IMG/VR virus record: IMGVR_UViG_3300005588_000719 | Coordinates: 1-54,756 of that record | Length of the DNA stretch: 54,756 nt | Origin: a virus | Taxonomy: Duplodnaviria; Caudoviricetes | Reading direction: 5' to 3' (one strand) | Shown: positions 8,955 through 54,108 of the stretch, one piece after another | Numbering within the stretch: the first letter of the stretch is position 1 | Layout: every line of letters begins with the position of its first letter | The notes under the pieces: generated by a model | What the model was told of the DNA's origin: nothing | Seen by the model: the letters and a program-made list of their open reading frames with translations, nothing else | Databases searched by the model: none | Program-made: the position numbers and the translations under genes

Positions 8955-8955
8955 T

Positions 8956-21147: not shown

Positions 21148-21220
21148 GCGGAGTTATCATAACAGGTTAATGAGCAATCTATCCAAGATTGATAATAGGG
21201 TTCAAGTCCTTAACTCCGCT
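21148..21220 (+). tRNA. tRNA-Gly (TCC), non-canonical (A33, A15:A48, no encoded CCA)
   Basis: GCGGAGT TA TCAT AACAGGTTA ATGA G CAATC TATCCAA GATTG ATAA TAGGG TTCAAGT CCTTA ACTCCGC T; all four stems pair. Confidence 0.88.
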
Positions 21221-30494: not shown

Positions 30495-30698
30495 TTAAAA
30501 TATTACTTCTTGACCGTAAGGCTTAATCTGACCTCGACGATATTTATTTATTAACTCTTCTTGCCGTTTACTTTTGGATTCAAACTTTTTACAGTCATCA
30601 ATCAAACTTTCAATTTCTTTTTTATTAGCGTGATTGTGCAATCTTGCTATAAACCGTAGTTTGGCTTCTCTTTCTTTATTCATTTTGAACCCCCCCAA
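30495..30698 (-). CDS. Hypothetical protein
   Basis: Probable start at MNKERE, overlapping the upstream stop. Confidence 0.5.
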   Translation of the reverse strand: MGGFKMNKEREAKLRFIARLHNHANKKEIESLIDDCKKFESKSKRQEELINKYRRGQIKPYGQEVIF

Positions 30699-31417
30699 TC
30701 CGTATTTTCAATTATACCCATAATATGTTTTTTGTTCTTCTTCCACCATTTGCCAGCTCCGCCATCGAGCTTTTCGGCTTCTCTTGGTGTAAGCCCTTTA
30801 AAATATTTGTAATTATCTTGAACGCAACCGATTGCAATAACATCTTTTGTATATGTAACGTGGTATCCTTTAGTTAATATATTACATATATAAGTGCCAT
30901 CACCTATGCACCATCTCAGATTTGTTTTGCTCAAATCAGCAAAGCTCAAATCAGCAAAGCTCAAATTAGCATGTTTCAAATTCGCATATCTCAAATTAGC
31001 TTGTCTCAAATAAGTGCCTCTCAAATTCGCATATCTCAAATTCGCATCGCTCAAATTAGCATTTATCAAATTAGCACGTTTCAAATCAGCATCTCTTAAA
31101 TTAGCATTTTTCAAATCAGTATCGCTCAAATTAGTATCGCTCAAATTAGCACCTCTTAAATCAGCATGTCTCAAATTAGCATGTCTCAAATTAACATGTC
31201 TCAAATAAGCAAAGCTCAAATTAACACCTCTTAAATTCGCATAGCTCAAATAAGCAAAGCTCAAATTAGCACCTCTTAAACTTAAATTCGCATAGTTCAA
31301 ATCAGCATGGCTCAAATCAGCATGTTTGCCTTTATTATTACTTCTTAACCATAATTCATGGTCATCAATAATTTTATCTAACTGTTCTTGTGTGTATTTA
31401 ATTTTATTCATCTTCAA
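30680..31417 (-). CDS. Pentapeptide repeat protein
   Basis: Long run of A(D/N)Lxx repeats; HELWL N-cap; IAIGC/WW C-terminal domain. Confidence 0.95.
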   Translation of the reverse strand: MKMNKIKYTQEQLDKIIDDHELWLRSNNKGKHADLSHADLNYANLSLRGANLSFAYLSYANLRGVNLSFAYLRHVNLRHANLRHADLRGANLSDTNLSDTDLKNANLRDADLKRANLINANLSDANLRYANLRGTYLRQANLRYANLKHANLSFADLSFADLSKTNLRWCIGDGTYICNILTKGYHVTYTKDVIAIGCVQDNYKYFKGLTPREAEKLDGGAGKWWKKNKKHIMGIIENTDWGGSK

Positions 31418-36510: not shown

Positions 36511-36586
36511 TGCCGTAGCTGGGGCTTGAACCCAGAAGTTGTAGTTGTTTAATAAATCCTGTCGCTTCTCCAAGCTGTTCTACGGC
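36511..36586 (-). ncRNA. tRNA-like element: intact acceptor and T arms, no anticodon arm
   Basis: GCCGTAG-44 nt-CTGGG TTCAAGC CCCAG CTACGGC A. Confidence 0.7.
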
Positions 36587-36592
36587 TATTTT

Positions 36593-37045
36593 TTATGAGA
36601 ATATTTCTTCTTCTTCCATTTCATAAATAGTTGATTGGAAGTCTTCTTCTTGCATATCTTCTCTCGCTAATTCTTCACCGCTGAAGTAATCATAATAGAT
36701 TATTACTTTATTTTCGTAATCTTTGACTTTTTTACATGCCTTAGTAAGCAATCTCTTTCCGCCTTTTAACTCATTTGATAATTCAGTTAATTGCTCATGC
36801 TTGACCTTAATTTGAGATGTGTAAGAAGCGTTGGAGCTTTTTTTTGCTGACTCTAATTCATTGATTTCAGAAACCAATTCAGTCATTGCATTGCCCATGT
36901 CGATTTTCTCTTTATCTGAAAATTCTACTTCAACATCTCTTGGTACTGCTCCTGTTGGCATATCTTCATTTTCAACTTGCTCATATTCAGCTTCTTCGAT
37001 TTCATCGATTACTGCTAATTCAGTTGATGTATTTTCTTGTTCCAT
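36593..37045 (-). CDS. Acidic hypothetical protein
   Basis: 150 aa, AAGGA RBS, coiled coil. Confidence 0.7.
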   Translation of the reverse strand: MEQENTSTELAVIDEIEEAEYEQVENEDMPTGAVPRDVEVEFSDKEKIDMGNAMTELVSEINELESAKKSSNASYTSQIKVKHEQLTELSNELKGGKRLLTKACKKVKDYENKVIIYYDYFSGEELAREDMQEEDFQSTIYEMEEEEIFS

Positions 37046-37090
37046 TTTTTTATTCCTTTATTGATTAATAATTGGTTAGGGTTTTTTAAT

Positions 37091-37139
37091 TAAAAAATAC
37101 AAGCCCGCTTGGGATTTAATTGGGGGGAAAGCGAGCTTG
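37091..37139 (-). terminator. Intrinsic terminator
   Basis: Minus strand CAAGCTCGCTT / AAGCGGGCTTG stem followed by TATTTTTT. Confidence 0.65.
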
Positions 37140-37151
37140 CACTTGAGGAAC

Positions 37152-39065
37152 TCATGCACTCACAAGTTCATTATCATTAATTACTTTGAAATCTTTATCT
37201 GTTACTTTTGTAACAAACATTTGTAAATCACTTTCTTCAGCTTTTGTTTTAAATTCTAATAATGTTTCGTTATCAAAGACTTCTAATCCATCTACACAGA
37301 TTAACTTTAAATCTCCTACTCTAATCTTTGCTATTTCAATTGCTATATCTACTTTTTTAGCTGTGTTTAATCGGTCAAATGGGACATTGTCAAAGTAAAT
37401 TTCTCCGTCTTTTACTTCTAAGCCGTCAATAGGGAGTTCTTTCAACAAGCTACTTTTATACTCATCTAATTTCTTGAGGGCTTCCGATAATGAAGAGCTA
37501 TCTGCATTTAATAATTCTAACTGCCTTTTATTTTGCTCTACAATTCTTCTCATTGAGTCAAACTCTGCATAACTGTTAAACTTTGCTTCCAAGTTCGCTT
37601 TTTCTGTTAATTTTCCGTTTAAATTCTCGTTGAATTTATCGTTTAAATTTTGGCGTTGGAGTTCATATTTTTTTCTGACATTTTCTATTTCTTCGGCTTC
37701 TTTATTTCTTATTGATTGCAAATAATCATCTTTCTTATTTCTCGCTTCATCTATGCTATTTTCAATCTCCCTTAATTGTTCTTTTAAATCGTCTATTGAT
37801 ATATTCAACGGTATTTCATCAATAGTCATATCCTTAATTGTAGCAGTCTTTTCTTTGATTTGTCTATTAATCAATGTCCTTTCATTAAATATGTTTAAGT
37901 GAGCGTAATCTATTACTTGCAGTCCGTGTTGATTAAAGTCATTAATATTTGCTATTTCCATAGTTCCATTTAAAACATTCTTTAATTCATTTTCTCCTAC
38001 TTTGATTGGCACGGCATCTAACATTAATTGAGTTCGTTCTTTTGGCTTTGCTGTAATAAATTCTATTGGATTTGTTGAAAGAACGTCTGTTAAATCATTT
38101 AAAATTGACTGAGGTTTTTTAATTAATTCTCCTCGATTATCATAAAGTTCTAATTTTGACTTTGAACCTTTGAATGTTCTTTTTAATGATGTACCTTCGT
38201 CAAATACTAATACTACTTCTCCTTGTTCGCTTCCATTCTTTACTATGGTTGCATCTTTGCTACCTTTAATTGCAAGTTTAATTGCTTCAAGGAATGATGT
38301 TTTTCCACTCCCATTTTTCCCCTCGATTGAGTTAAATTTGCCTGCTTCAAAGCTAAATTCACTTATGCCTAAAACATTTTGTATATGTATTTTATTGATT
38401 TTCATTTTGATTTCCGTTTCTTTTATTTTAAAATAATTTTCTAAATTGTTATTATAAATGAAGTGTACTAATTCTTTCAGAACTTCATGGTTTCGACTTA
38501 TCACATCTTCATTTATATATTCTCTAAATGTATGTATATCAATTAATTTTAATTCTCCGGCTGTTTCTTTCATCTCAAATATATTATATTGGAGTGTCTT
38601 TAATCCGAACATCTCAAGGTAAAATCCCCATTGGCAAGATTTTGAATATTTTTCGTAATCGTATAGCCCCCAACAAGTTTTATTTTCAACTATCATTGAG
38701 CCTGCCAATTGGTCAACTCTTCCACTTAGCAATACATCATATCCGTCTATCTTGTACTCTTTTTTAATTGGCACTTCAAAAGGAAATCTATAATCTAATA
38801 CCTCAAATGATGGCATTACATTTTCTGGAGTGAATACTATTCCGTCATGTTCAAATATATTATGTTGCTGATTATATGTTTCTTCAGGAGCTTCTAAGAT
38901 TTTATGATATGCAGAGCCTAATTCCGCAAATTTGCTATGCTTATACTCGCCTTTTATCATATCAATAATATCTTCAGTAGTAAATTTTACTTCTCCTTGA
39001 TAGTTGGGAACATTATATAAATATTCCCTGAATGTATTTATAAATGATACTGATATTTTAATCAT
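37152..39065 (-). CDS. Fusion of a PD-(D/E)XK-like nuclease and an SMC/Rad50-like ATPase
   Basis: N-terminal LGSAYH, FE, GRVD, ENKT and QWGFY; from 38405 GKNGSGKTS, coiled coil, LNTAKK and LICVDGLE. Confidence 0.8.
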   Translation of the reverse strand: MIKISVSFINTFREYLYNVPNYQGEVKFTTEDIIDMIKGEYKHSKFAELGSAYHKILEAPEETYNQQHNIFEHDGIVFTPENVMPSFEVLDYRFPFEVPIKKEYKIDGYDVLLSGRVDQLAGSMIVENKTCWGLYDYEKYSKSCQWGFYLEMFGLKTLQYNIFEMKETAGELKLIDIHTFREYINEDVISRNHEVLKELVHFIYNNNLENYFKIKETEIKMKINKIHIQNVLGISEFSFEAGKFNSIEGKNGSGKTSFLEAIKLAIKGSKDATIVKNGSEQGEVVLVFDEGTSLKRTFKGSKSKLELYDNRGELIKKPQSILNDLTDVLSTNPIEFITAKPKERTQLMLDAVPIKVGENELKNVLNGTMEIANINDFNQHGLQVIDYAHLNIFNERTLINRQIKEKTATIKDMTIDEIPLNISIDDLKEQLREIENSIDEARNKKDDYLQSIRNKEAEEIENVRKKYELQRQNLNDKFNENLNGKLTEKANLEAKFNSYAEFDSMRRIVEQNKRQLELLNADSSSLSEALKKLDEYKSSLLKELPIDGLEVKDGEIYFDNVPFDRLNTAKKVDIAIEIAKIRVGDLKLICVDGLEVFDNETLLEFKTKAEESDLQMFVTKVTDKDFKVINDNELVSA

Positions 39066-40081
39066 TAGAATTCAAATGCCTCCGCAGGTTCTTCTACTTC
39101 AAACGGCTTTAACTCTTCGGCTTCTTTTTCTCCTGTCATATTAGAATAATCTGGTTCAGTTTCTACTTTTGGCTCTGGTTCTTTATTTACTGCTTCATAT
39201 ACATTTTTATCTTTGTTATATGTAAACCCTAATTCAATTACTCTTTCTTTGAATATTTGTCTTACTTGAATTTTTACAGCTTGGCTTAGGTCTTTCAATT
39301 CATCAACTAATGAATTACATTCTTCAGGAGTTTCTATTCTATCAATCTTGTTTCTGAACTTTTGTATTAAATCGACTGTTTCTTTTTGCACGTTTGAAAT
39401 ATTACCTAAACTTGCTTTGATTTCTTTTAGTTTTGTTTGGAAGAAATCAGGTTCATCTGTGAAATTTGGTAAAATTATAGTTGGAAAATTCATTGAATTT
39501 TTACCTATAAAATACTCACTTGGATTAAAGTCTAAAGTTCTATTTTTATCTATATTCTGCATATATCCGATAAAGTCTGAATTATCTGCAATTAAGCTGT
39601 AAGATGAACCTGTAATAGCAGGTCTTTTGATGGTCATATCTCCTTCAGTATGCTCTTTCACTTGAGCAATCATAATCAAATCTTTCCCTTGATTACGTAA
39701 AATGTTAGTGAAGTCTTTAAATTCGTTCTTTAATTGTCCGTACATTTGGAGCTTATTTCTTTTGAATTTTGGATTTTTCTCAATTAGATTTACTTCAATA
39801 CTTTCCATACATTTTGAAATCGTATCTACTATAATTACATCATATTTTTTAATCAATTCAATGAAACCTTTTGTATCATTTGATATATCTGTCCATGATG
39901 ATATTTGTACAACATCTTTCCTATATGCTGACCTATGAACACCGTTATCAAAATCTAAGGTTAAACAATTTCCTGATGTATTTGCAAGACTGGTTTTTCC
40001 TGAACTCGGATAACCGTATATTAAACCAAATGTAGTTTCAATATTTATCTTGTCTTCTTTTTTTATTAGATTAAATCCCAT
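39065..40081 (-). CDS. Sak4-like (AAA_24) ssDNA annealing ATPase
   Basis: IYGYPSSGKTSL, LDFDNG, IIVDT and SDFIGYM. Confidence 0.88.
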   Translation of the reverse strand: MGFNLIKKEDKINIETTFGLIYGYPSSGKTSLANTSGNCLTLDFDNGVHRSAYRKDVVQISSWTDISNDTKGFIELIKKYDVIIVDTISKCMESIEVNLIEKNPKFKRNKLQMYGQLKNEFKDFTNILRNQGKDLIMIAQVKEHTEGDMTIKRPAITGSSYSLIADNSDFIGYMQNIDKNRTLDFNPSEYFIGKNSMNFPTIILPNFTDEPDFFQTKLKEIKASLGNISNVQKETVDLIQKFRNKIDRIETPEECNSLVDELKDLSQAVKIQVRQIFKERVIELGFTYNKDKNVYEAVNKEPEPKVETEPDYSNMTGEKEAEELKPFEVEEPAEAFEF

Positions 40082-40093
40082 TTTATTATCCCT

Positions 40094-40252
40094 TTAAATA
40101 TTTTTAAAAATTTGTATGATTATTAATACCATTAATACTGTGATTATACCGTATTTCTTGAGCAGTTTTGCTAACATGAAATACATTTTATCAATAGTTC
40201 TTGTTCTTGTGAATTTCCCTATTGAAATAGGTTTAAAAGATGTACTATTCAT
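40094..40252 (-). CDS. 52-aa small membrane protein (below the ORF-track cutoff)
   Basis: MNSTSFK...YGIITVLMVLIIIQIFKNI; GAGGA RBS; fills the gap. Confidence 0.5.
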   Translation of the reverse strand: MNSTSFKPISIGKFTRTRTIDKMYFMLAKLLKKYGIITVLMVLIIIQIFKNI

Positions 40253-40469
40253 TTTTTTCCTCATGTTCTAACTCAAAATTGAATGGATTGTAAATACCCT
40301 TTTTTATTCCTTTATTTTCCAAAGCTTCTATTGTTCCTAAAACAAAGTCCAAATCAGTATTTTTGTTTAATTCTACTGGTCTAAATATAGTTGCAGTTGT
40401 TTCAAAAAAATCTTCTTTTGGCTGAGAAAATCTTTGCTCTTCAGAATTCCATTTATATTTTGCATTCAT
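40245..40469 (-). CDS. Hypothetical protein
   Basis: TAATG-coupled to the upstream ORF. Confidence 0.6.
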   Translation of the reverse strand: MNAKYKWNSEEQRFSQPKEDFFETTATIFRPVELNKNTDLDFVLGTIEALENKGIKKGIYNPFNFELEHEEKNE

Positions 40470-40819: not shown

Positions 40820-41022
40820 TTTACCACCTCTGAACTTTCTAATTCTGCAATTCGTTTGTTAAGTTTATCTATAAGATTGTTTCTCTCAAAAAGCAAATCT
40901 TCTAAAAATGCTTTATTGCTTTGAAGGATTAGTACCTTGCCTTCTAATTCTTTTATTAGAGCTTCGTTTATTTTATTTAATTCGTAGTTACTCATCTTAC
41001 CCTCCATAACATATCTGTACAA
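40810..41022 (-). CDS. Small coiled-coil protein
   Basis: Probable start at MSNYEL after GGAGG. Confidence 0.55.
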   Translation of the reverse strand: MYRYVMEGKMSNYELNKINEALIKELEGKVLILQSNKAFLEDLLFERNNLIDKLNKRIAELESSEVVKWK

Positions 41023-41192
41023 GTTTGCTGTAATAAGTCTGATAGCTCTTCATCTGTTCGGTCTATCATTCTTTCTATAACATCTTTGCTGATTTCAGTA
41101 TTTCTCTTTTCAAGTTCTGATAAGAGATATACTATTTTGTGAGATAGTCTCGCTATCTCTTCAACTGTTCTTCTTTTTTCTTTGGAAATCAT
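40992..41192 (-). CDS. Small hypothetical protein (start revised to MISKEKRR)
   Basis: AAGGA RBS before the ATG at 41192; the longer version runs through a terminator hairpin. Confidence 0.55.
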   Translation of the reverse strand: MISKEKRRTVEEIARLSHKIVYLLSELEKRNTEISKDVIERMIDRTDEELSDLLQQTCTDMLWRVR

Positions 41193-41608
41193 TTTGATTT
41201 TCCTTATATTTGTTTGTAAATACATCCAAATTAGAACCCTCAGTAGTCCCTTATCTATGAGGGTTCTTTTTTTTCTTTTTGTGTCAATCATTTAATTTTT
41301 TATATTTGCATAGTTAAAGAATATGAGTCCTGGTCTTTGTGTATTTTAGGCTGGGATTCTTTTTTTTTATGTGAATGAACTCTTAATTATTTTGTAAATC
41401 AAAATATTTATTTTATATTTGTTAGTGGATAATTAGTTAAGGAACTCTGGTCACCGTGCAAAATGACCGGAGTTCTTTTGCTTTAATAGTAATTGTAATA
41501 TTTATATCTTTGTTTATCATAATAATTTTTCTATATTTGCTCATGAACAAGAGAATGTTTTGTTCTTTCTACAACCTTAGCCTACGTAATCCTTGGCTAA
41601 GGTTTTTT
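41181..41608 (+). ncRNA. Array of four promoter + hairpin/U-tract small-RNA units
   Basis: TTTG-19/20 nt-TATATTTG with -7 boxes at 41205, 41301, 41414 and 41532; hairpins at 41233-41267, 41325-41359, 41441-41476 and 41573-41604. Confidence 0.65.
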
Positions 41609-41912
41609 AATTTCTACTAAAAAATTTTACTTTATCTTCGTGCGAACCAAATAGCTCTACTACTTTAGCTCTTTTGTTTACTTCAACATTTTTAGGAAAT
41701 GTTTTGTGAGTTAATTGCCTTAATAAATTAAGCAATGATGGAACATATATTTTATTTCTCCTATCTGTATCTATCAACTTATATTTAAGAGCGTCAGCAA
41801 TTACAACTATACTAATATTAGCAATTTGCGCTGCCTTTCTTTGAGATACAAATAACTCTTTGTTTGCTTCAAAGTATGCTTTTTCATAATTATATGTAGA
41901 AGTTTCTGCCAT
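41607..41912 (-). CDS. HTH DNA-binding protein (excisionase-like)
   Basis: VSQRKAAQIANISIVVIADAL and IYVPSL. Confidence 0.55.
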   Translation of the reverse strand: MAETSTYNYEKAYFEANKELFVSQRKAAQIANISIVVIADALKYKLIDTDRRNKIYVPSLLNLLRQLTHKTFPKNVEVNKRAKVVELFGSHEDKVKFFSRN

Positions 41913-41918
41913 CGTTTT

Positions 41919-42098
41919 TTAATTTACTTTTTCTATATTTTGGTCGTAAACTTTGTTGATTATTAATTCTAATACTTTTGTATTATCTGAATTAATTTTT
42001 TTTGCAAGAATATTTAAACGTTCTTTGGTCTCTTTATTTAATCTAAATGATACTGCTTCTTTTTTTGAAGCTTTGTCTAAACTTATATTTACATTCAT
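41919..42098 (-). CDS. 59-aa ribbon-helix-helix protein (below the ORF-track cutoff)
   Basis: MNVNISLDKASKKEAVSFRLNKETKERLNILAKKINSDNTKVLELIINKVYDQNIEKVN. Confidence 0.75.
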   Translation of the reverse strand: MNVNISLDKASKKEAVSFRLNKETKERLNILAKKINSDNTKVLELIINKVYDQNIEKVN

Positions 42099-42135
42099 TA
42101 GTGGGCTTTGTTTAGTGGGTGAAAATATATTTTTG

Positions 42136-42207
42136 TTTGCATTTCTAAAACATTTATGTATATTTGTATATACAAATGTATATTTGTAATATACATTTAT
42201 ATATTTG
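42136..42207. promoter_or_regulatory. Operator/overlapping-promoter region
   Basis: Perfect palindrome ATTTGTATATACAAAT (42162-42177); three TATATTTG at about 20 nt spacing on +; TACATTTG on -. Confidence 0.55.
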
Positions 42208-42226
42208 GTAGAATTTGTAAGAGATT

Positions 42227-42397
42227 TTATTCGGTTATTAACTTGAATTCTTTTTCAGAATTTACAAAGCGAGATAGAGTTATTTCAGCAAATCGTTTTC
42301 TGGTTTGATGAATTTTGTCTGCTTTTTTTGTTAAAAGTTTGTAATCATTTTCTTCCAATTCTACTTGGATTTTATATTTTTTACTTGTCTTACTCAT
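42227..42397 (-). CDS. 56-aa probable ribbon-helix-helix protein in the Cro position (below the ORF-track cutoff)
   Basis: MSKTSKKYKIQVELEENDYKLLTKKADKIHQTRKRFAEITLSRFVNSEKEFKLITE; first ORF after the early promoter. Confidence 0.65.
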   Translation of the reverse strand: MSKTSKKYKIQVELEENDYKLLTKKADKIHQTRKRFAEITLSRFVNSEKEFKLITE

Positions 42398-42439
42398 TAT
42401 CTATATATAGTTATAAGATGTTTGCGATACTTTATAAGA

Positions 42440-42470
42440 CAAATATAAGATATTTGTATGATATATGCAA
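42440..42470 (-). promoter_or_regulatory. Early leftward promoter, divergent from the repressor
   Basis: TTGCAT-17 nt-TATATTTG. Confidence 0.7.
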
Positions 42471-42528
42471 GAATTATTTTATTTTTTTTTACATTAATTT
42501 ACTTCATCGTAACACGAAAGGCTTTTAA

Positions 42529-43149
42529 GTGTCTGAAACTTGGCAAGATAGATTGACTTTGTCCGCTAAAAAAAAATATAACTCTGTACGTAATTTATGT
42601 ATTGAGAATAATATTAGCGATCAATATTTCGTAAGATATATGAGAGACAACTCGCTAACACCTCGTGTTTTAAACACATTAGAAAAAGCAGGAATTAATC
42701 CAGAATACATAAAAAATGGCACACTCCCAATGTTTATTGAGGGAGAAAAACAAAATAAATCTGGAATACCACTTTATGAAATAGGTGCGACAGGTGGAGA
42801 TGTTCACTTGTTCAACGACCATAACGAAAAACCAGTTAGCTATATAAATATGCCTGGATTAGATGGTAAAGCCGCTATTATTGTACACGGCGACTCAATG
42901 CACCCTGTGTATTCTGACGGTGACATAATTACAATCGATGAGCCAAGTAATTTAATTATATATGGAAAAGCACATTTAATTATTTGCGAAAATCAAAGAA
43001 TGATAAAATATCTTTTACCATCAGAGAGTGAAGGTAAGGTTATATGCAAATCTGAGAACCCAGTAGGCAACCCACAGTTTGAAATATTTGAGAAAGATAT
43101 AATTAAGCTGTTCTTGATTAAAAATTGTGTAAAGAAATTTAAGAGTTAA
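42529..43149 (+). CDS. CI-like repressor with an S24 peptidase domain
   Basis: N-terminal HTH-like region ending INPEYIKNG; IPLY, ATGG, VHGDSMHP and MIKYL. Confidence 0.88.
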   Translation: MSETWQDRLTLSAKKKYNSVRNLCIENNISDQYFVRYMRDNSLTPRVLNTLEKAGINPEYIKNGTLPMFIEGEKQNKSGIPLYEIGATGGDVHLFNDHNEKPVSYINMPGLDGKAAIIVHGDSMHPVYSDGDIITIDEPSNLIIYGKAHLIICENQRMIKYLLPSESEGKVICKSENPVGNPQFEIFEKDIIKLFLIKNCVKKFKS

Positions 43150-43172
43150 TTGTTTAGAATAGGAGACAGGAG

Positions 43173-44570
43173 ATGGAAACACTTATTAAAAATGAGCGTG
43201 GTAGAGAAGCATTATTTTTTACTGAAATCCAACCAACACAAAAAGAATTCGATTCAATTATAAATGCTGAATTATGGAGTGATAGTCCTGCAACTATTAA
43301 AAAGATATATAAAACATTTTATAAAATTGGGCTTCGTTCTGTTAAAATTGATACTATAATCAATAACCTAGAAAAAGAATATCATCTTCTCAGAAAAGAA
43401 ATAAAATCTTCGAATGAATACAAGGAAATGACTGAACCAGAAAAAATAGACTCCTTAAAAAGAGTTATGAAAGAGATGTACGAACGTTTTAATTATAGCA
43501 TTAGACTAACTGGCGGAATATTGTTAGAAGACATTTTTACTAATAAACAAATTGACTTATCTCCAATATTGGAAAAGTATCAATTAGACATATTAAATTT
43601 ATATGTTGATCATATTGATAAAATTGATAAAGCTATTAAAGCACCAGGAAATAATGAATTTAGAACATTGTTTGAAAAAGCACATAAATTAGGATTAGTA
43701 AAAAGAGGAGCAGAAGTAGATCTCGAAATACTTTCAAATGCTATCACTATAAAAGAAGCAAATTTAGCCTTTGCAGATGTTATGGAAAAAAAGATAACCC
43801 GTAAAAGTCAAATAGCGGAACATATTTTAAAATATGAAAATTCTTTTGAGTTATTAAGCCAACATATTGCTATGAACAGTATATTCCAGTTCAAACCTTT
43901 AAAATTAAATGGGGAGTTAATTGACCTTGTTAATTTGAAATATAATCTTAAATGGGTTCGATCATATATTTTTATGTTACAAGATATTTATAGAGAAGGA
44001 GACGATTATTATGACGATTACGGAAAATTCAACAATGAATATTACCAAACATTAGGTTATGATGGTATAATCTCTGAGGAAGATAGACAGAGTGAATTTA
44101 TAGAAACATTTGAATATAGTATAGAAGATATAGAAGAAGTTGATGAAAGAAAAAAAGAAATAGAACCACCAGTATTTACTAAACAAATAAAGTCTATTGA
44201 ATCAGAAAATAAAATTGGTGTAATCAAACTTTTCTTAGGGAAACTATATTCACCACAAATAGATAAATTCATAAGAAATTTAGATGAAAAACATTTTGAA
44301 GAGATTTCAAATTTAAAATTTAAAACCCCACTTGTAACTCTTATCCTATGCTTCTTCTTTTTAGATAGATTTTATTTAGGAGCTTGGAAACTCGGAATTC
44401 TAAAAATCATTACATTTGGTGGGCTATATCTTTGGTACATAGCTGATATATTTTTATTTCATAGTAATACTTGCAAAGCCAATAAAAAAATATTAGAAAA
44501 ATATATATTTGATAATGATTTGACTAAGCAATATTTTGATATAGTAGCTTCTGATTTGAAGTTAGAATAA
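43173..44570 (+). CDS. Large protein with a C-terminal TM2 domain
   Basis: FFLDRFYLG and GILKIITFGGLYLWYIADIF. Confidence 0.75.
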   Translation: METLIKNERGREALFFTEIQPTQKEFDSIINAELWSDSPATIKKIYKTFYKIGLRSVKIDTIINNLEKEYHLLRKEIKSSNEYKEMTEPEKIDSLKRVMKEMYERFNYSIRLTGGILLEDIFTNKQIDLSPILEKYQLDILNLYVDHIDKIDKAIKAPGNNEFRTLFEKAHKLGLVKRGAEVDLEILSNAITIKEANLAFADVMEKKITRKSQIAEHILKYENSFELLSQHIAMNSIFQFKPLKLNGELIDLVNLKYNLKWVRSYIFMLQDIYREGDDYYDDYGKFNNEYYQTLGYDGIISEEDRQSEFIETFEYSIEDIEEVDERKKEIEPPVFTKQIKSIESENKIGVIKLFLGKLYSPQIDKFIRNLDEKHFEEISNLKFKTPLVTLILCFFFLDRFYLGAWKLGILKIITFGGLYLWYIADIFLFHSNTCKANKKILEKYIFDNDLTKQYFDIVASDLKLE

Positions 44571-46313: not shown

Positions 46314-47213
46314 TTGTCAGTAAAAAATCTACAATATGATGGAAAAAATAAAAGCGAATTTTATCGTATTAGGGATTCTATTCATAATTTTATAGATATT
46401 ATACTTGACAATTACTGGGATTTTTTATTTTGGATAACTACAATAGTGTTTGGTCTTATAATGGGAGATATACTTATTTTAACTTATGAATGTGAAGACT
46501 ATAAACATGCATCTCTTTTAGTAATTTTTTTAAGTTCTGCTTTTTTAAAATTTAAGCAATATAATAAAAATAAAAGCTTGCGTGAAATACAAGAAGAGAA
46601 TAATGAATTGAATAATGAAATTAATGATTTATCCTATTATAATTATAATTTAATGTTTGAGAATTGGAATGTCTTAAAAACATTGTGCAATGAGAAATTA
46701 AAAAAACTAGTTAATGATTTAAATTATGAGTCTGAGGTAAGAGCAAGTTTATATCTTTATGACGATACAGTTAAAGCATTCCATACACCTGGTCGATATG
46801 CACAAGATCCAGAATTAAATAAACAAGGTAGGTTTCTATATCCCTCTGATGTAGGAATTATTGGAGTTGCTTGGAAAAATAAGGATAACGAATATGAGGA
46901 AAACTTTTCTAACCATAATTATGGGACTAAGCAGTACCTAAAAATTTTAGAGATGAAATATAATTTAAATGTTGAAGATATCAAGGAATTCAGAATGGAG
47001 AGCGTGCATTTCATAACTATAAAAATAAAAAATAATGGTTATAATATTGGGATCATATTATTTGAAAGTGAAAAATCAGGAATAATGCAATTAGATAAAG
47101 TGGAAACTGAATTAGAAAAAGAGAAAAATAATTTATCATTAATATTGTCAATATTAAAAAATAATAGTTCATTTGTGAACACAAATCATAGAGTTATATA
47201 TGAAAAATCTTGA
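46314..47213 (+). CDS. 2-TM membrane protein with a coiled coil and a GAF-like C-terminal domain
   Basis: Two TM segments; VRASLY, GIIGVAW and IGIILFES. Confidence 0.6.
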   Translation: MSVKNLQYDGKNKSEFYRIRDSIHNFIDIILDNYWDFLFWITTIVFGLIMGDILILTYECEDYKHASLLVIFLSSAFLKFKQYNKNKSLREIQEENNELNNEINDLSYYNYNLMFENWNVLKTLCNEKLKKLVNDLNYESEVRASLYLYDDTVKAFHTPGRYAQDPELNKQGRFLYPSDVGIIGVAWKNKDNEYEENFSNHNYGTKQYLKILEMKYNLNVEDIKEFRMESVHFITIKIKNNGYNIGIILFESEKSGIMQLDKVETELEKEKNNLSLILSILKNNSSFVNTNHRVIYEKS

Positions 47214-47697
47214 AAAAACATTGTTAGCATTTTGTCAGTTATTTCCTAACAAACACCTACTGTCTAAAGCAAGATTAACTAAAATGGTTTACCTTGCAGA
47301 TTGGGAATATGCTAAAAAATATAAAAAACAAATTACAGATATACAGTGGTATTTTCATAACTATGGTCCTTTCGTTGATGATGTGTTTGAAGCGGCTTTA
47401 AATTCAAGTTACTTAAATATTATTAATTCAATTAATATGTATGGGGACGAAAAAACTATTATTAATCTTAGCGGTAAACCTTTTAATATACAAATTGAAG
47501 ATAACATTTATAATATTATTGAGGATGTTATTTATAGTACAAAAGATTTAAACTGGAATGAATTTATTGGATATGTGTACGATACGTTTCCAATCAAACA
47601 ACAAGATAGATACATTGATTTAGATTTAATTGAGTTAGCTAACCAATATGAAGAAAGTCTTAAAGATAATTATCCTTTAGATTTATTAGGAATATAA
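47200..47697 (+). CDS. Panacea (DUF4065/SocA-like) domain protein
   Basis: RLTKMVYLADW and ITDIQWYFHNYGPF. Confidence 0.85.
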   Translation: MKNLEKTLLAFCQLFPNKHLLSKARLTKMVYLADWEYAKKYKKQITDIQWYFHNYGPFVDDVFEAALNSSYLNIINSINMYGDEKTIINLSGKPFNIQIEDNIYNIIEDVIYSTKDLNWNEFIGYVYDTFPIKQQDRYIDLDLIELANQYEESLKDNYPLDLLGI

Positions 47698-49116: not shown

Positions 49117-49611
49117 ATGATGAGAGATGCACAGGAAAAATACAAAATTTTATTTATCTTAGCATTGTTCTTTGGAATAATTGGTGCGGATAAATTTTAC
49201 ACTGGTAAATATTTAATAGGAATATTGAAACTTATTACATTAGGCGGATATGGTATTTGGTGGCTAATTGACATTATATTGATTAGTAATAATAAAGAGA
49301 AATGGCTGGATTATTTTTGTTCTTTAGGTCATCCTTATAAAAATCCAACAAGAGAAGAGCAAAGAAGATTACAATTAATGGAAAAATATAAAGACGAAGA
49401 CTTGGTTAATAAAATAATTGCTGGTACTATATCACAAGGGTATTCTTCTGAAATGCTGATAGATACCTTGGGTAAGCCAGTTAAAATTGATGAAAAAGTA
49501 ACTAAGAAAAAAACAACCCATACATATAAGTATGGTCAAATTAATAACAGGTCTTTTAAATTAGCTGTGACCTTAGAAGATGATATAGTCGTAGGTTGGG
49601 ACCAAAAATGA
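49117..49611 (+). CDS. TM2 domain protein
   Basis: GIIGADKFYTG and GILKLITLGGYGIWWLIDII. Confidence 0.85.
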   Translation: MMRDAQEKYKILFILALFFGIIGADKFYTGKYLIGILKLITLGGYGIWWLIDIILISNNKEKWLDYFCSLGHPYKNPTREEQRRLQLMEKYKDEDLVNKIIAGTISQGYSSEMLIDTLGKPVKIDEKVTKKKTTHTYKYGQINNRSFKLAVTLEDDIVVGWDQK

Positions 49612-50510: not shown

Positions 50511-51899
50511 CTAATTTGAGATTAGCTCTCCATTTTGAATAACGTACTTTATGTCTAGGGTATTTTTAATATTCAATAATGGGTTTGAATTTAGAATTAT
50601 AAGATCAGCAATTTTTAATTCCTCAACAGATCCTCTTTCGTTTTCTTCATTCAATGCTAATGCACCGTTATATGTGGCAATTTTGATTACTTCATTTTCT
50701 GAAATGCCTGCTTCGACTAATAACTGCATCTCTTGATGTATGGAATATCCTGGAATCACCCAAGGGTTTGGAGTATCACTTCCTGTTGTTAATATTATTT
50801 TATTATCATAAATCTTTTTACAAAGGGCTAATAATTTCGACCATAAAGTTTGAGCCAAAATAAAATCATTGCTATCCCAATCTTTTACATATGAACCAGT
50901 TTCCCACATATTTACTATCACAGGATGCATTAATCTAATCAAATTATTATGAATATGTAATTTGTTATTACCCCAGAACTTAGTGTGAAATACAATAAGA
51001 GTTGGATCAAATATCACTTTACTTTTACGCATACTATATATCATATTATTAATGAGCTTACCATCTAAATCAATATTTTCTAACCAGTAAAGTCTTCCTT
51101 TCATACTAGGATTATAATTTTGTTGATATTCCTTACTTAAATGATTTACATTCCAATCAGCTGCATGTGTTATAAAATCTATACCCAATTTACTAGCCTC
51201 AGTCCAACTTGTATTTTGAAGATGTCCAATAACTTTAACATTGTGCATATGAGCCTCATCAATTGCTATCTTAATTTGTTTGGGATTTAATGAAGAATAA
51301 ACCTTAATAAAATCAACTCCAGAATTTATTTGTTTCTTTATCTCTTTACGTATTTCGCCTTCTGTACTTGTCTTTATAAAAGGACCACCTGAAAATGTAT
51401 TTAATGCGTAACCTGTACAGAATATTCTTGGTGAAATTATTTTGGAGTTTTTCTTAATTGTTTCTCTTAACTTTATTGACTCAATTGTAGGTCCTGCTAC
51501 ACTTCTTATAGTAGTAACTCCATATTTAATAAAATATTTTAGAGAATGAAAGCTTGCTTCAAAATTGACTTCATCACTATGTCCATTTATTGAATCATAA
51601 TTTAATATAGTTGCATGAGTATGAGTATCATATAAACCTGGAATTACAAATTTGTTAGTACAATCTATTATTTTTGATTTATAATCAAATGAAGAATTAT
51701 CGTTTTCAATTATTTTAAATATTTTATTATTTTGGATAATAATTGATTTATTACTTTGAATAGGTGTACCTTTTCCATCTATAATAGATATATTTTTAAG
51801 TTGTAAATATTCCTTTTCAATATTTTCTTCTTTTATTTCTTTAGTAGAGCATGATAAAGTAAAATATACAATAACAAATATTAGTTTTTTTATTTTCAT
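50511..51899 (-). CDS. Amidohydrolase family lipoprotein
   Basis: Lipobox TLS-C; IPGLYDTHTH, GVTTIR, VIGH, GSD and ADLIILNSNPL. Confidence 0.9.
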   Translation of the reverse strand: MKIKKLIFVIVYFTLSCSTKEIKEENIEKEYLQLKNISIIDGKGTPIQSNKSIIIQNNKIFKIIENDNSSFDYKSKIIDCTNKFVIPGLYDTHTHATILNYDSINGHSDEVNFEASFHSLKYFIKYGVTTIRSVAGPTIESIKLRETIKKNSKIISPRIFCTGYALNTFSGGPFIKTSTEGEIRKEIKKQINSGVDFIKVYSSLNPKQIKIAIDEAHMHNVKVIGHLQNTSWTEASKLGIDFITHAADWNVNHLSKEYQQNYNPSMKGRLYWLENIDLDGKLINNMIYSMRKSKVIFDPTLIVFHTKFWGNNKLHIHNNLIRLMHPVIVNMWETGSYVKDWDSNDFILAQTLWSKLLALCKKIYDNKIILTTGSDTPNPWVIPGYSIHQEMQLLVEAGISENEVIKIATYNGALALNEENERGSVEELKIADLIILNSNPLLNIKNTLDIKYVIQNGELISN

Positions 51900-51979
51900 T
51901 AACTTCTTTTATTCCATATATATTTTAAAATCAACTATATTAACTAGAGCTTTATGTGTTACCTTCCAATCATTAAATA

Positions 51980-52207
51980 TCATTCACCTTTTTCAACAAA
52001 CCTACTTTTAAAATAATACAGCCTACCATCTTCCCAAATATAATCTACATTTTCTTTTAAGGTGGGTTTGACTTTATATACTTTTATAGTACCATCTTTA
52101 GCTTTTTTTTTGCTTACAGTTTCGTTTCTACGTCCTAAAAGGGCTTGCCTTGTAACTCCTAACAACTCTGCAAGTTCTTTTTCTGTTATCAAATCTTCCC
52201 TATTCAT
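51980..52207 (-). CDS. HTH DNA-binding protein (start revised to MNREDL)
   Basis: LITEKELAELLGVTRQAL; paralog of 52627-52869. Confidence 0.75.
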   Translation of the reverse strand: MNREDLITEKELAELLGVTRQALLGRRNETVSKKKAKDGTIKVYKVKPTLKENVDYIWEDGRLYYFKSRFVEKGE

Positions 52208-52550
52208 AATCATCCTCAAAATCGTCATCAAATTCATCATATAGGTCTTCTAAATGTTCATAGTAGGCATCTCCTATCTCACTCATTATCTTAGCCATTT
52301 TATCTGCGAAACTTTGAGACAATTCTACCTTTTCCCAAAATTCATAAACAGAAATTAAATATTCAACACCTTCAAATGAATTTGTCAATGAATGGAATTG
52401 TGTTGAATTTTGATTATTCCTTAACTCCTCTGCCAATTCTTCTGTATATTCATTTACAACCGCAATAAAACGTGGGGACTGAGTATGAATAATGTAATCG
52501 TCTTCAATAGCTTCCGGGTCTATGGAAAATAAATATTTTGGTACACTCAT
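52200..52550 (-). CDS. Acidic hypothetical protein
   Basis: 116 aa; YIIHTQSPRF motif. Confidence 0.65.
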   Translation of the reverse strand: MSVPKYLFSIDPEAIEDDYIIHTQSPRFIAVVNEYTEELAEELRNNQNSTQFHSLTNSFEGVEYLISVYEFWEKVELSQSFADKMAKIMSEIGDAYYEHLEDLYDEFDDDFEDDYE

Positions 52551-52626
52551 TTTATTTATAGTTTAAATTAATAAAATTTACTTATTGACAAATATACTAA
52601 ATGTTTCACAAATAGAAATACTCCTT

Positions 52627-52869
52627 CTATTTTTCTTCATAGTCTTTTAAAGTTTTCAATGCTTGCTCTTTGTAATAACACACTCTTCGCTTATCCCAAA
52701 TATAGTCTATATTTTTCTTGAATATTGGCTGATAGATATATTCTTTAATTGTTCCATCTTTCATTTTCTTTTTAGCTTTACGTTCTTTTCTATACATAGT
52801 TAATAGAGTTACTGATTTTCCAGTTAGAGCTGATAACTCTGATTCTGTAATTAATTCTTTTTCTTTCAT
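52627..52869 (-). CDS. HTH DNA-binding protein (start revised to MKEKEL)
   Basis: LITESELSALTGKS, KKKMKDGTIK and DYIW. Confidence 0.72.
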   Translation of the reverse strand: MKEKELITESELSALTGKSVTLLTMYRKERKAKKKMKDGTIKEYIYQPIFKKNIDYIWDKRRVCYYKEQALKTLKDYEEK

Positions 52870-52874
52870 TTTTA

Positions 52875-53489
52875 TTAATCCCATATCGTAAACATTGAAC
52901 ATTTATTTTCTAATATCTTTAAATTCATAGGTAGAGATTTCAGGTTATTATTAACTATATCAAGTATTTTAAAATTATCTAAGTTTACAATGCTCTCAGG
53001 TATCACTTCTAAATTATTATTTTCTGCTGTAATCATCTCAAGTTTTTTCATTTCTCCTATATCAATAGGAAGCTCCATAATATGATTATCATTAATAACT
53101 AATTCTTCTAAATTCTTTAACTTAGTAATACTATTTGGCAAACTAAATAATTCATTATTGGCAATATTCAATACTACTAAGTTATACAAATCTCCAATGT
53201 TTTCTGGTAAACTTATCAACTTATTATTGTTTATTCCCAATATTTCAAGGTTTGCTAATTTACATATACTATCTGGAAGTTTAGTTAGCATAGTCCCACC
53301 AATATACATTTTTTTTAGATTTGTTAAATCACCAATATTTTCAGGGAGTGATGTTATGTAATTATTTCTTATATCTAATCTTCTTAATAGTTTTAATTCA
53401 CTCAAACTAATCCCTACTAATTCAGCTAAATCTTGAAGAGTTTTTAATTCACTTGTTTTTGTTTCCATTATTAATTCTTTTTCTCTCAT
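52875..53489 (-). CDS. Leucine-rich repeat protein
   Basis: About seven 23-aa LxxLxIxxNxLxxLPxxI repeats. Confidence 0.95.
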   Translation of the reverse strand: MREKELIMETKTSELKTLQDLAELVGISLSELKLLRRLDIRNNYITSLPENIGDLTNLKKMYIGGTMLTKLPDSICKLANLEILGINNNKLISLPENIGDLYNLVVLNIANNELFSLPNSITKLKNLEELVINDNHIMELPIDIGEMKKLEMITAENNNLEVIPESIVNLDNFKILDIVNNNLKSLPMNLKILENKCSMFTIWD

Positions 53490-53491
53490 TA

Positions 53492-54007: not shown

Positions 54008-54055
54008 TATAATAATCCTTTTTTAAATATTTATTTTGTCTTAATTTCTATTTAT

Positions 54056-54084
54056 AATATAATAAATTGTTTTTATATATGCAA
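54056..54084 (-). promoter_or_regulatory. Promoter for the LPD29-LRR-HTH unit
   Basis: TTGCAT-17 nt-TATATT. Confidence 0.65.
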
Positions 54085-54108
54085 GAGAAATTTATATTTC
54101 TTGAATTT

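Follow-up and report, generated by a model that had tools for sequence, protein, structure and literature searches.

Four consecutive miniature transcription units, each with a predicted promoter, a hairpin and a T-tract, fill the 414-bp gap (41193-41606) that separates two leftward early genes of a temperate phage, and these units probably make small antisense RNAs which help in gating the early operon. The phage is represented by a temperate-phage provirus record whose source is a marine sediment metagenome, and the window referred to throughout is the whole stretch of 54,756 nucleotides that was analysed. ORFs cover ~92% of the window, leaving ~8% as non-ORF sequence. A tRNA/tmRNA search of the window gave a single find, a tRNA-Gly at 21148, and no further copies of the array were detected within the record, the best other match being 26 nt long (E 0.02).

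The array is surrounded by the following features:

40992..41192, - strand: 66-aa ORF with its ATG at 41192, the first gene downstream (leftward) of the array
41607..41912, - strand: 101-aa ORF, the last gene of the leftward operon upstream of the array
41919..42397, - strand: small ORFs of 59 aa and 56 aa, with which the early operon opens
42099-42226: operator-rich spacer between the 59-aa and 56-aa ORFs
42440..42447, - strand: TATATTTG as -7 box of what is likely the early promoter for leftward transcription (TTG-N20-TATATTTG), 43 nt before the 56-aa ORF
42529..43149, + strand: CI-like repressor with an S24 peptidase domain (PHROG 4, 2.3e-12; PHROG 6201; PF00717, 1.2e-8)

The 59-aa ORF weakly matches PHROG 876, a transcriptional repressor (E 2e-4), and a PDB sequence search with its protein gave nothing useful. 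No match was obtained for the 66-aa ORF in Pfam or PHROG, or for the 101-aa ORF in Pfam, PHROG or a PDB sequence search; judged by eye only, the latter has the look of a helix-turn-helix protein. The array was observed to lie at the exact border between the small regulator-like genes (56, 59 and 101 aa) and the recombination/replication genes, the delayed-early genes beyond it comprising the 66-aa ORF, Sak4-like and SbcC-like genes, helicases, DnaB and RusA. All four units are on the strand of the S24 CI-like repressor and opposite in orientation to the leftward early operon, so that their preliminary description as antisense to the early operon of a temperate phage was borne out. In our ORF survey the nearest upstream ORF on the + strand ends at 28305, and the distance from the array to the following + strand ORF is at least 990 nt.

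Each unit has the layout TTTG-N20/19/19/19-TATATTTG(Y), with a hairpin and T-tract 54-63 nt downstream. The predicted promoters are:

41181..41212, + strand: unit 1 (TTTG at 41181, N20, TATATTTG at 41205-41212, then T)
41278..41308, + strand: unit 2 (TTTG at 41278, N19, TATATTTG at 41301-41308, then C)
41391..41421, + strand: unit 3 (TTTG at 41391, N19, TATATTTG at 41414-41421, then T)
41509..41539, + strand: unit 4 (TTTG at 41509, N19, TATATTTG at 41532-41539, then C)

The optimal spacing between the -33 and -7 elements is about 19 nt, and the spacers between the -33 TTTG and the -7 box are 20, 19, 19 and 19 nt here. In the available text of PMC12632263 the extended Bacteroidota -7 consensus is given as TANNTTTGY, and the boxes of all four units fit it, in agreement with the Bacteroidota-type motif recognised earlier. 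Thirteen of the 20 TATATTTG boxes lie outside ORFs, i.e. in roughly 8% of the window, and six of these stand 20-136 nt upstream of same-strand ORFs, the likely early promoter included. Because of this placement outside ORFs and upstream of same-strand ORFs, TATATTTG appears, on sequence grounds, to behave as a genuine promoter element in this genome. The promoter segments can be aligned with one another and have AATCA/TATCA after the TTTG in common, and units 3 and 4 are 74% identical over 38 nt, indicating that the promoter modules are paralogous.

Other indications as to the host were mixed. Among the clusters shown, the nearest Atlas clusters of the DnaB-like helicase by features include two bacterial ones, commonest in Bacteroidota, and by structure one commonest in Verrucomicrobiota and one in Bacteroidota. 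An AAGGA-like ribosome site precedes 33 of the 63 phage ORFs, a frequency that is unusual for Bacteroidota.

With start points inferred from the positions of the -7 boxes, the RNAs predicted for the four units are:

41216..41274, + strand: unit 1, ~56 nt; leader, hairpin GAACCCTCA/TGAGGGTTC, 15-nt loop, T8 (hairpin and T-tract at 41234-41274)
41312..41368, + strand: unit 2, ~55 nt; 12-bp stem with four G-U pairs, 11-nt loop, T9 (hairpin and T-tract at 41325-41368)
41425..41482, + strand: unit 3, ~55 nt; 13-15 bp stem, 10-nt loop, tail TTTTGCTTT (hairpin and T-tract at 41442-41479)
41543..41608, + strand: unit 4, ~65 nt; small 5' hairpin, 10-bp terminator stem, 12-nt loop, T6 (hairpin and T-tract at 41575-41608)

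In all four units a GC-containing stem is followed directly by a T-tract on the strand predicted to be transcribed, as in an intrinsic terminator; the bare hairpins have stems of 10-13 bp, energies of -11.8 to -17.1 kcal/mol and tails of T8, T9, TTTTGCTTT and T6. The T6 tract of unit 4 abuts the stop codon of the 101-aa ORF (41607). On folding both strands with RNAfold, the + strand RNA was the more stable form for each of the four hairpins, at -18.7 against -17.6 kcal/mol for the reverse complement in unit 1, -20.7 against -17.1 in unit 3 and -22.0 against -19.9 in unit 4. The bias is strongest in unit 2 (-19.1 against -5.8, 13 kcal/mol apart), whose stem contains the G-U pairs 41327-41357, 41331-41353, 41332-41352 and 41334-41350, and the T-tracts lie 3' of the hairpins only on the + strand. 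The loops, at 10-15 nt, are longer than a plain terminator requires, which hints at a sequence-specific role. TAGTTAA and CTGGTC are common to units 2 and 3. The four RNA bodies all differ and do not align with one another.

The non-coding spacer holds all of the predicted RNAs (41216-41608), which overlap neither a coding sequence nor a ribosome site. It is the promoter of unit 1 that reaches into the start of the leftward 66-aa ORF, overlapping both its ATG (41192) and its AAGGA ribosome site, while the RNA of this unit is predicted to begin ~25 nt upstream of that ATG and to head away from it. These findings bear out in full, at 41181-41608, the sequence observations of the preliminary description: the fourfold succession of TTTG, 20- or 19-nt spacer, TATATTTG, stem and T-tract, the four G-U pairs of unit 2 that are specific to the + strand, the motifs shared by units 2 and 3 beside four differing loops, and the overlap of the first promoter with the ribosome site of the ORF at 41192. 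Small peptides were also considered as products. A peptide from unit 1 was ruled out, there being no ATG upstream of its hairpin, and those from units 2 and 3 would reach only 7-8 aa. The 25-codon frame of unit 4 passes its own terminator to a stop at 41618-41620, and its translation is therefore unlikely.

The complete promoter-plus-terminator anatomy of each unit is far beyond chance. The motif TTTG.{18,20}TATATTTG occurs five times on the + strand of the window and never on the - strand, and four of the five occurrences are in the gap. In 100 first-order Markov simulations of the window the expected count of this strict motif on both strands was 0.19 (sd 0.44, maximum 2), and 3000 simulations with the composition of the gap gave 0.003 per 440 nt (maximum 1); by itself TAnnTTTG shows no enrichment, with 98 occurrences against 98.5 expected. 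A custom terminator screen of the 54.7 kb found eight sites on the + strand and two on the - strand, and the array hairpins make up four of the former eight. The sole array call of a stock terminator scanner was the inner stem of unit 1 (41248-41263); it missed the other hairpins because it permits loops of 3-8 nt only.

A single distant relative was found, in viral contigs, with a Sak4 aa identity of 74%. The Sak4 search gave this one locus in viral contigs, none in genome contigs and the same contig again in metagenome contigs, and the 32-nt pattern of the promoter and ORF start was likewise found, in viral contigs, on the relative's contig only. Of the 34 records returned by a tblastn search with Sak4, none reached 60% identity, and a blastn search of 50,697 phage records was without a match. 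The relative has one unit, in the same place and orientation as in the window and with a loop of 17 nt. The comparison of copy number across related phages proposed earlier thus gave one unit against four, with an unrelated RNA body. The block best conserved between the two phages is:

41154..41217, unstranded: conserved island of 64 nt, 89% identical to the relative

Codons 1 to 13 of the 66-aa ORF fall within this island together with the entire unit 1 promoter. The island ends 5 nt past the -7 box, and it is the best-conserved block of the region, the homologous blocks that flank it being 66-73% identical. The RNA bodies of the window and of the relative cannot be aligned, and the relative keeps none of the four RNAs. 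Its 64-aa ORF shares 39% aa identity with the 66-aa ORF, the N-terminus MISKEKR being identical. A 99-aa extended form of the 66-aa ORF (start 41291) was rejected, because the ORF of the relative begins with the homologous MISKEKR and the homology sets in at 41154. The 101-aa ORF is absent from the relative, and a search of viral contigs with its protein retrieved no relatives. A near-identical variant from a different study (run X3) keeps all four units; its substitution 41350 G>A changes a U-G pair of unit 2 to U-A, and four of the seven listed substitutions fall in leaders, this being a very small sample. A possible replaced cassette was also noticed in X3. Among the four sequencing runs listed with this DNA, none was of RNA.

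Taken over one distant relative and one near-identical variant, i.e. very few sequences, the conservation of the promoter but not of the RNA fits a cis-acting, sequence-independent role better than four specific trans regulators. Since cis-antisense action or interference needs just a promoter and a terminator, complementarity being automatic, the RNA behind a conserved promoter could drift freely. We tentatively read the array as four independent cis-antisense units of 55-65 nt, resembling OOP and sar, that gate the delayed-early genes via convergent transcription and RNA pairing. The housekeeping sigma factor of a Bacteroidota-type host would read the four units independently, and each RNA would terminate at its own intrinsic terminator. 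As the units face the leftward early operon, each RNA would be complementary to an untranslated spacer of the early mRNA. In a lysogen, or at low activity of the early promoter, polymerases from the four convergent promoters would collide with or block the leftward polymerases, and the antisense RNAs would form duplexes of 55-65 bp with read-through mRNA, open to RNase III-type cleavage; leaky downstream expression would therefore be suppressed. After induction, strong leftward transcription would occlude the four promoters. In this way the array would work as a threshold gate, a fourfold counterpart of lambda OOP or P22 sar. Consistent with gating, there is no upstream + strand gene which these terminators could serve.

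Lambda OOP is described in the available text of a review (PMC12197685) as a 77-nt cis-antisense RNA made from the promoter pO in reverse orientation within the early rightward operon, whose pairing with the early mRNA leads to RNase III-dependent decay. The array units resemble it in being short, in a similar size class (55-65 nt predicted), and in having their own predicted promoter and intrinsic terminator reversed within the early operon of a temperate phage. They differ from it in that OOP is single and overlaps the 3' end of cII, whereas here four tandem units with Bacteroidota -33/-7 promoters lie in a non-coding spacer. In P22 the arc-ant operon begins with a small repressor gene, and the sar promoter lies in the intercistronic gap. 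The sar RNA itself is an antisense RNA of 68/69 nt from the arc-ant operon of immI, according to the same source (PMC12197685). The likeness here is that of a promoter placed in a gap, against the operon, after small regulator-like ORFs, one of which has the weak repressor PHROG match. However, sar is single and covers the ribosome site of ant, while it is the promoter of unit 1, and not the transcript, that overlaps the start of the next gene; in this the array departs from both OOP and sar, whose transcripts extend over coding sequence (OOP) or the ribosome site (sar) of the gene they target. At the gathering score, Rfam gave no sequence or structure homology to either RNA. In the text available from PMC12197685, P1/P7 c4, P4 CI and BTP1 STnc6030 are prophage RNAs which, through base pairing, block the lytic genes of their own phage or of incoming ones. 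The first two are processed from longer transcripts and have defined repeated target sites, no matching sites having been found in this phage, and STnc6030 is antisense to a tailspike gene, unlike the array.

An antitoxin role, which had also been proposed, found no support, as there is neither an adjacent toxin gene nor an antitoxin array of identical repeats. ToxI consists of near-identical 36-nt repeats behind one promoter, directly upstream of the toxin gene. The array shares with it the tandem arrangement of small-RNA units in a mobile element, but its four RNAs are different, each has its own predicted promoter and terminator, and no same-strand gene is adjacent, so that the organisation of a type III toxin-antitoxin system is lacking.

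Other arrays were found in gene gaps of viral contigs from putative Bacteroidota phages (L115, L120 and L143). They have two to four units, each with a TATATTTG-type promoter, a body of 70-115 nt and a hairpin with a T-tract, and their sequences are unrelated to the array of the window. L115 has three near-identical paralogous units with variable 5' segments, in contrast to the four differing bodies here. Neighbours of the L115 array include an Arc-like repressor and a protein of PHROG 1281, and the L120 array follows an endolysin. A scan for triple promoters retrieved 29 viral stretches, nearly all of them short coding repeats or promoter triplets without terminators, and none resembles the array. 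The double-promoter pattern in genome contigs gave 40 records, 23 of them Bacteroidota-named, the others being mostly short coding repeats. Rfam searches of L115, L120 and L010 at E up to 1 returned nothing relevant, with two chance matches to miRNAs.

The units could alternatively be trans-acting sRNA morons, additional genes that bring their own promoter and terminator, whose leaders or loops pair with transcripts of the host or of competing or superinfecting phages, their antisense position being incidental. We take this for the main rival reading, possible but doubtful. It requires the same promoter-terminator anatomy as the gate, and it would accommodate the unusually large loops (10-15 nt, and 17 nt in the relative), the four different RNA bodies and a varying cassette content (one unrelated unit against four, and the possible replacement in X3), as expected in an arms race. 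The L115 and L120 arrays occupy accessory-gene positions, and since they are co-directional with their neighbours, the antisense position is not general to such arrays. Examples would be P22 sar, P1 c4 and BTP1 STnc6030 for superinfection immunity and DicF for host reprogramming. Prophage sRNAs with roles of this kind are documented in the available text of PMC12197685. However, no trans target stands out inside the phage, either by exact complements or by duplex energies. Exact complementarity to the leaders and loops extends over 9-12 nt at most, a length to be expected in 110 kb of AT-rich sequence, and against the 63 phage translation-start regions none of the duplex energies beat the minima of 60 shuffles, the lone exception being, trivially, unit 1 through its overlap in cis. 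Between units, z did not fall below -1.5 for any pair of leader and loop. The complementarity to phage mRNAs that the preliminary description proposed to look for did not rise above shuffled controls at translation starts. Its proposal of four independent RNA units agrees with the promoter-to-terminator anatomy, the predicted size being ~55-65 nt. It also speaks against morons that the X3 substitutions fall, in four of seven cases (a very small sample), in the leaders, where seeds would lie, and that none of the four RNAs is conserved in the relative.

It is improbable that the elements act instead on the leftward mRNA or on DNA, the hairpins serving in processing, stability or pausing and the boxes being protein-binding sites or remnants of duplication, any + strand RNAs being inconsequential. 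On the - strand, three hairpins out of four do fold well (-17.6, -17.1 and -19.9 kcal/mol), and the aligned promoter segments with AATCA/TATCA suggest a duplication that included the ORF start region. At the predicted start of unit 1 there is TGTAAATACA, one mismatch from the switch-region palindrome TGTATATACA. The operator idea was nevertheless rejected, since the 7 occurrences of TGTATATACA with up to one mismatch do not significantly exceed the 3.77 +/- 2.02 expected, a count of 7 being attained in 10 of 100 shuffles. The hairpin of unit 2 is nearly lost on the - strand (-5.8 kcal/mol), its G-U pairs being specific to the + strand, and T-tracts follow the hairpins on the + strand only. An action on the leftward mRNA or DNA would moreover leave unexplained the four full-consensus promoters at a fixed distance upstream of terminators.

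We consider it very unlikely that the array is a neutral by-product, i.e. a tandem-duplicated promoter-terminator module which is transcribed without a selected function. The paralogy of the promoter modules (units 3 and 4, as above), the unconserved RNA bodies and the rarity of the array, with none of the 29 triple-promoter loci in viral contigs alike, would agree with it. Against it, all four units have a perfect -33/-7 consensus and an intact terminator despite their diverged bodies, a spacer of 414 bp is kept in a genome that is ~92% ORF, conservation in the region is highest at the first promoter, and the variant from another study retains all four units.

RNA anti-CRISPRs (Racr, solitary repeat units) are, in the available text of PMC10651486, promoter-proximal small hairpin RNAs of prophages, strongly expressed and about the size of a CRISPR repeat. 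The predicted promoters of the array do lie within 250 bp upstream of its hairpins, but Racr are defined by likeness to the CRISPR repeats of the host, and the array hairpins are canonical terminators with T-tracts. That the hairpins are decoys against host defence, mimicking CRISPR repeats or other RNA ligands of defence proteins, is most unlikely, as their size of 28-35 nt, which approximates that of a CRISPR repeat, and their being four different hairpins are set against GC-rich stems running directly into T-tracts, so that terminator function explains them fully, the lack of matches in Rfam, which covers CRISPR-repeat families, a neighbourhood in which no acr or aca genes were recognised, and a location in an early-operon spacer outside any recognisable anti-defence island. 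The Rfam scan that had been suggested earlier returned no match over the whole window (Rfam 15, gathering threshold), and in the 1-kb region at E up to 10 it gave nine chance-level matches far below the gathering score (best E-values 1.3-9.9).

Going beyond the gate on the early operon, one may speculate, though we think it rather unlikely, that the array adds to the lysis-lysogeny switch a layer of RNA control which is modular and evolves fast. At the start of the first delayed-early gene, a conserved constitutive promoter would be followed by one to four antisense mini-genes in an exchangeable cassette; the number and sequence of the mini-genes would set the read-through threshold and the specificity of RNA immunity against close relatives.

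What is known of regulatory RNAs in temperate phages comes, to our knowledge, almost entirely from enterobacterial models such as OOP, sar, c4 and CI. The words 'tandem' and 'Bacteroid' do not occur in the available text of a 2025 review of phage sRNAs (PMC12197685). If transcribed as predicted, the array would be the first multi-copy antisense gate within an early operon, and it would give an initial view of how a temperate phage of a Bacteroidota-type host is controlled at the RNA level. Its simple design, a consensus promoter, 55-65 nt and a terminator, four times over, may provide a compact module for transcription interference. The exchange of cassettes behind a conserved promoter, of which we see a hint, would tie RNA regulators to the mosaic evolution of immunity regions. 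Should the modular RNA layer prove true, it would constitute a new class of heteroimmunity determinant in Bacteroidota phages, and the arrays L115, L120 and L143 would belong with it to a family of phage sRNA cassettes that has gone unrecognised.

The IMG/VR provirus record (54,756 bp, G+C 29%) carries the four-unit array on its + strand (41181-41608), opposite to a long leftward early block. The features that frame the array are given below.

1-20873, leftward: structural genes
21148: tRNA-Gly
Rightward: packaging block, including a Mu-type portal and F protein
~42397 down to 28550, leftward: long early block
40992-41192: 66-aa ORF flanking the gap
41607-41912: 101-aa ORF flanking the gap
42529-43149, rightward: CI-like repressor with an S24 peptidase domain

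The array is housed in the single large gap of the leftward block without credible ORFs (41193-41606), at the border between three small regulator-like genes and the recombination/replication genes. Products of the early block include RusA, DnaB, a Lin1244-type protein, an SNF2-type helicase, an SbcC-like ATPase and a Sak4-like protein. A 59-aa ORF has a weak PHROG match to a repressor, and the ribbon-helix-helix or helix-turn-helix appearance of the small ORFs near the array is a judgement by eye only. Elsewhere, the products of rightward genes behind the repressor include two proteins with TM2 domains (43173-44570 and 49117-49611) and one with a SocA/Panacea domain (47200-47697). The early block also encodes a pentapeptide-repeat protein (30680-31417), and a DUF488 protein maps to 23330-23713. 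The right end of the window (50511-54756) encodes an amidohydrolase, a leucine-rich-repeat protein and an LPD29-domain protein, which may be cargo or the host flank of the provirus call.

The preliminary description had proposed four tandem promoter-hairpin units, and this anatomy was borne out in the window sequence: four + strand copies of TTTG-N20/19/19/19-TATATTTG are present, each followed by a 10-13 bp stem (loop 10-15 nt) and a T-tract, and the four G-U pairs reported for the stem of unit 2 were confirmed. In all four units the T-tract starts 51-63 nt past the -7 box, immediately behind the stem. A pyrimidine directly follows TATATTTG in every unit, agreeing with the Bacteroidota -7 consensus TANNTTTGY (PMC12632263). 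Hairpin energies on the + strand and its complement were -18.7/-17.6, -19.1/-5.8, -20.7/-17.1 and -22.0/-19.9 kcal/mol for units 1 to 4, the + strand form being the more stable in each case.

The strict two-box motif occurs five times on the + strand of the window and never on the - strand, against a mean of 0.19 for both strands combined in 100 simulations; with the gap's own T-rich composition, the simulated expectation falls to 0.003 per 440 nt. TAnnTTTG by itself showed no enrichment over simulations in the window. A terminator screen of the whole window returned just 10 sites, four of which are the array hairpins; a stock scanner caught one inner stem only, because its loop limit is 8 nt. 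What stands out is the complete promoter with both boxes, in combination with a terminator. Judging from this anatomy, it is probable that the array comprises four independent mini-genes yielding predicted RNAs of 55-65 nt.

Searches of the window and the region gave no match between the array and any Rfam family, and a tRNA or tmRNA identity of the units was rejected by search. The array sequence is not repeated elsewhere in the record, complements of leaders and loops within the phage did not exceed chance, and no leader-loop pairing between units was found. A ToxI-like antitoxin RNA array was rejected, as the bodies are unalignable, every unit comes with a separate promoter and terminator, and the array is not followed by a gene on the same strand. 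Terminators serving an upstream gene were likewise rejected, the nearest + strand ORF ending 13 kb to the left.

Of the 20 TATATTTG boxes in the window, 13 fall outside ORFs, though the non-ORF part is only ~8% of it. Beyond the array and switch region there are six such non-ORF boxes, and each precedes the start of an ORF on its own strand by 20-136 nt; TTG-N20-TATATTTG at 42447, which belongs to these six, is the likely early promoter. The switch region (42099-42226 and 42398-42528) is divided by a 56-aa leftward ORF. Its inner spacer contains the perfect palindrome TTTGTATATACAAA, more inverted repeats and three + strand TATATTTG boxes (42159, 42179 and 42200), which face the CI gene through the 56-aa ORF in a likeness to a P_RE-type arrangement; in the outer spacer, the likely leftward early promoter sits inside the inverted repeat CAAATATAAGATATTTG.

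In one-genome-per-species bacterial contigs, two strict promoters 55-85 nt apart matched 40 stretches, 23 Bacteroidota-named, 15 from other phyla and 2 unnamed, the phylum of some genera being presumed; the non-Bacteroidota matches are mostly short coding repeats. For the DnaB-like helicase, the two bacterial Atlas clusters shown as nearest by features are both commonest in Bacteroidota; of those nearest by structure, one occurs most often in Verrucomicrobiota and another in Bacteroidota. This is a weak indication of a Bacteroidota-type host. Against this reading counts an AAGGA-type ribosome site in 33 of 63 ORFs (an AAGG, AGGA, GGAG or GAGG word within 17 nt before the start; often TAAGGA ~8-12 nt upstream), where a rough estimate by hand, made with no tool, expects such words in ~11% by chance. 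Sites of this type are unusual for Bacteroidota, yet here they accompany promoters of the Bacteroidota type. AAGGA 8-13 nt before ATG also occurs in several of the viral contigs that share this kind of promoter. Indirect indications that the motif would act as a promoter in this phage are mostly positive.

The phage is nearly alone among the collections searched. Its sole relative, a 17,942-bp contig (retrieved as L009, L010 and L011; Sak4 identity 74% in amino acids), has one unit in the homologous place and the same orientation. The promoter is the same and lies over the start of a homologous 64-aa ORF; the 5' hairpin differs, and the terminator loop is 17 nt long. This unit directly abuts the stop of an upstream gene unlike that of the window. 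BLAST of the window against the relative gave blocks at 36539-40409 (73% identity) and 41920-43151 (66%), and between them a 64-nt island at 41154-41217 (89%). The island covers 13 codons from the start of the ORF together with the whole unit 1 promoter and stops 5 nt past the -7 box; in BLAST of both regions the RNA bodies and the 101-aa ORF had no counterpart in the relative. The promoter is therefore conserved better than any other part of the region, and the RNA is open to replacement. Within the unit 1 promoter spacer lies an imperfect inverted repeat, GGAAATCATTTTGATTTTCC (41185-41204), whose predicted stem on the leftward mRNA would include the ribosome site as well as codons 2-3, leaving the AUG in the loop; the relative retains it, an A-to-G change preserving pairing as G-U.

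A 506-nt contig from X3, a sequencing run of another study, spans 41166-41671 and keeps all four units with 11 substitutions. Among the seven listed, 41350 G>A replaces a U-G pair in unit 2 by U-A, two others in unit 2 fall in the T-tract and just ahead of the stem, and four lie in leaders or just past boxes. Another X3 contig joins 41213 to 41603 (just past the unit 1 box to the unit 4 T-tract); the shorter side has 48 matching letters and the ends may enclose other sequence, and this weak evidence may reflect a replaced cassette.

Such arrays are rare in IMG/VR. The double-promoter pattern (55-85 nt apart) matched 37 viral stretches. In eight of these, one or more promoters were flagged as leading into a hairpin and T-tract; two complete units are present in L143 alone, where the second was recognised by eye. 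None of 29 triple-promoter stretches resembled the window's array. Loci with three TATATTTG boxes numbered at least 124, and among the matches listed only two have at least three boxes each with a terminator.

IMGVR_UViG_3300050002_000026, 8215-9050, minus strand: L115 array (context in L136)
IMGVR_UViG_3300037782_000016, a 36.5-kb record with direct terminal repeats: L120 array (context in L137)

The L115 array, with no Rfam match, has one unit and then three near-identical tandem units (promoter ...TTATATTTG) in an ORF-free gap of 923 nt, co-directional with its neighbours; an Arc-like repressor ORF and a gene for a PHROG 1281 protein lie nearby. Its RNAs (~85-105 nt) have a variable 5' segment and a conserved terminator, and units two and three also share a conserved hairpin in the middle; by eye, the 5' segment of the third unit appears complementary to the loop region of the second unit's terminator. 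In the L120 array, the three TATATTTG-promoter units differ from one another, and TTG-N19 precedes the box in two of them. Each comprises an RNA of ~75-100 nt plus a terminator, and the array runs in the same direction as the genes on either side, an endolysin-like gene and the one after it.

Prevotellaceae genome contigs (L184, L185, L197, L200-L202, L204, L207, L210, L214) carry, upstream of genes, 2-3 tandem copies of a ~90-nt module: promoter TTTGC...CACTATATTTG, a -7-box-complementary segment (GCGAATATAGG) and an A-rich stretch. This recurrent promoter/leader repeat is apparently undescribed. Viral contigs L138-L142, L144, L153-L155, L157-L159, L162, L164-L167, L169 and L170 form a phage family with 2-4 tandem TTTGATCTTA-N-TATATTTG promoters ~95 nt apart, the last driving a gene; a conserved leader of the form GTAAGATGATGAACAACCAA follows most promoters, and a terminator-like hairpin follows only one, in L138 and L170.

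Since the units face the early operon and occupy its spacer, they are cis-antisense by construction. The four promoters would fire convergently and interfere with leftward early transcription, and their RNAs would pair automatically, as antisense, with read-through early mRNA, giving a threshold gate on delayed-early expression in four copies. Such a role would need only firing and termination, and so predicts exactly the fixed promoter and free RNA body that the comparisons suggest; this pattern and the spacer position lead us to favour the gate as the putative function. Three points count against it: the array RNAs overlap no coding sequence or ribosome site, the loops exceed the needs of a terminator, and two unrelated viral contigs have comparable arrays that run in the same direction as the genes next to them. 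These points make the main rival a set of sRNA morons acting in trans, or else an immunity cassette of RNAs, whose targets would lie in the host or in competing phages. A decoy role of the hairpins as in RNA anti-CRISPRs (Racr; PMC10651486) is less likely, because terminator function accounts for the hairpins.

Short antisense RNAs within temperate-phage early operons are already a known kind. In the literature searched we found no description of a tandem set of four such RNAs, of four full-consensus Bacteroidota-type promoters in such a set, or of such a set in a non-coding spacer with its first promoter seated on the next gene's start. The array is real and unusual, and the favoured threshold gate would resemble lambda OOP (77 nt, acting in cis) and P22 sar (68/69 nt; both in PMC12197685), here in four copies.
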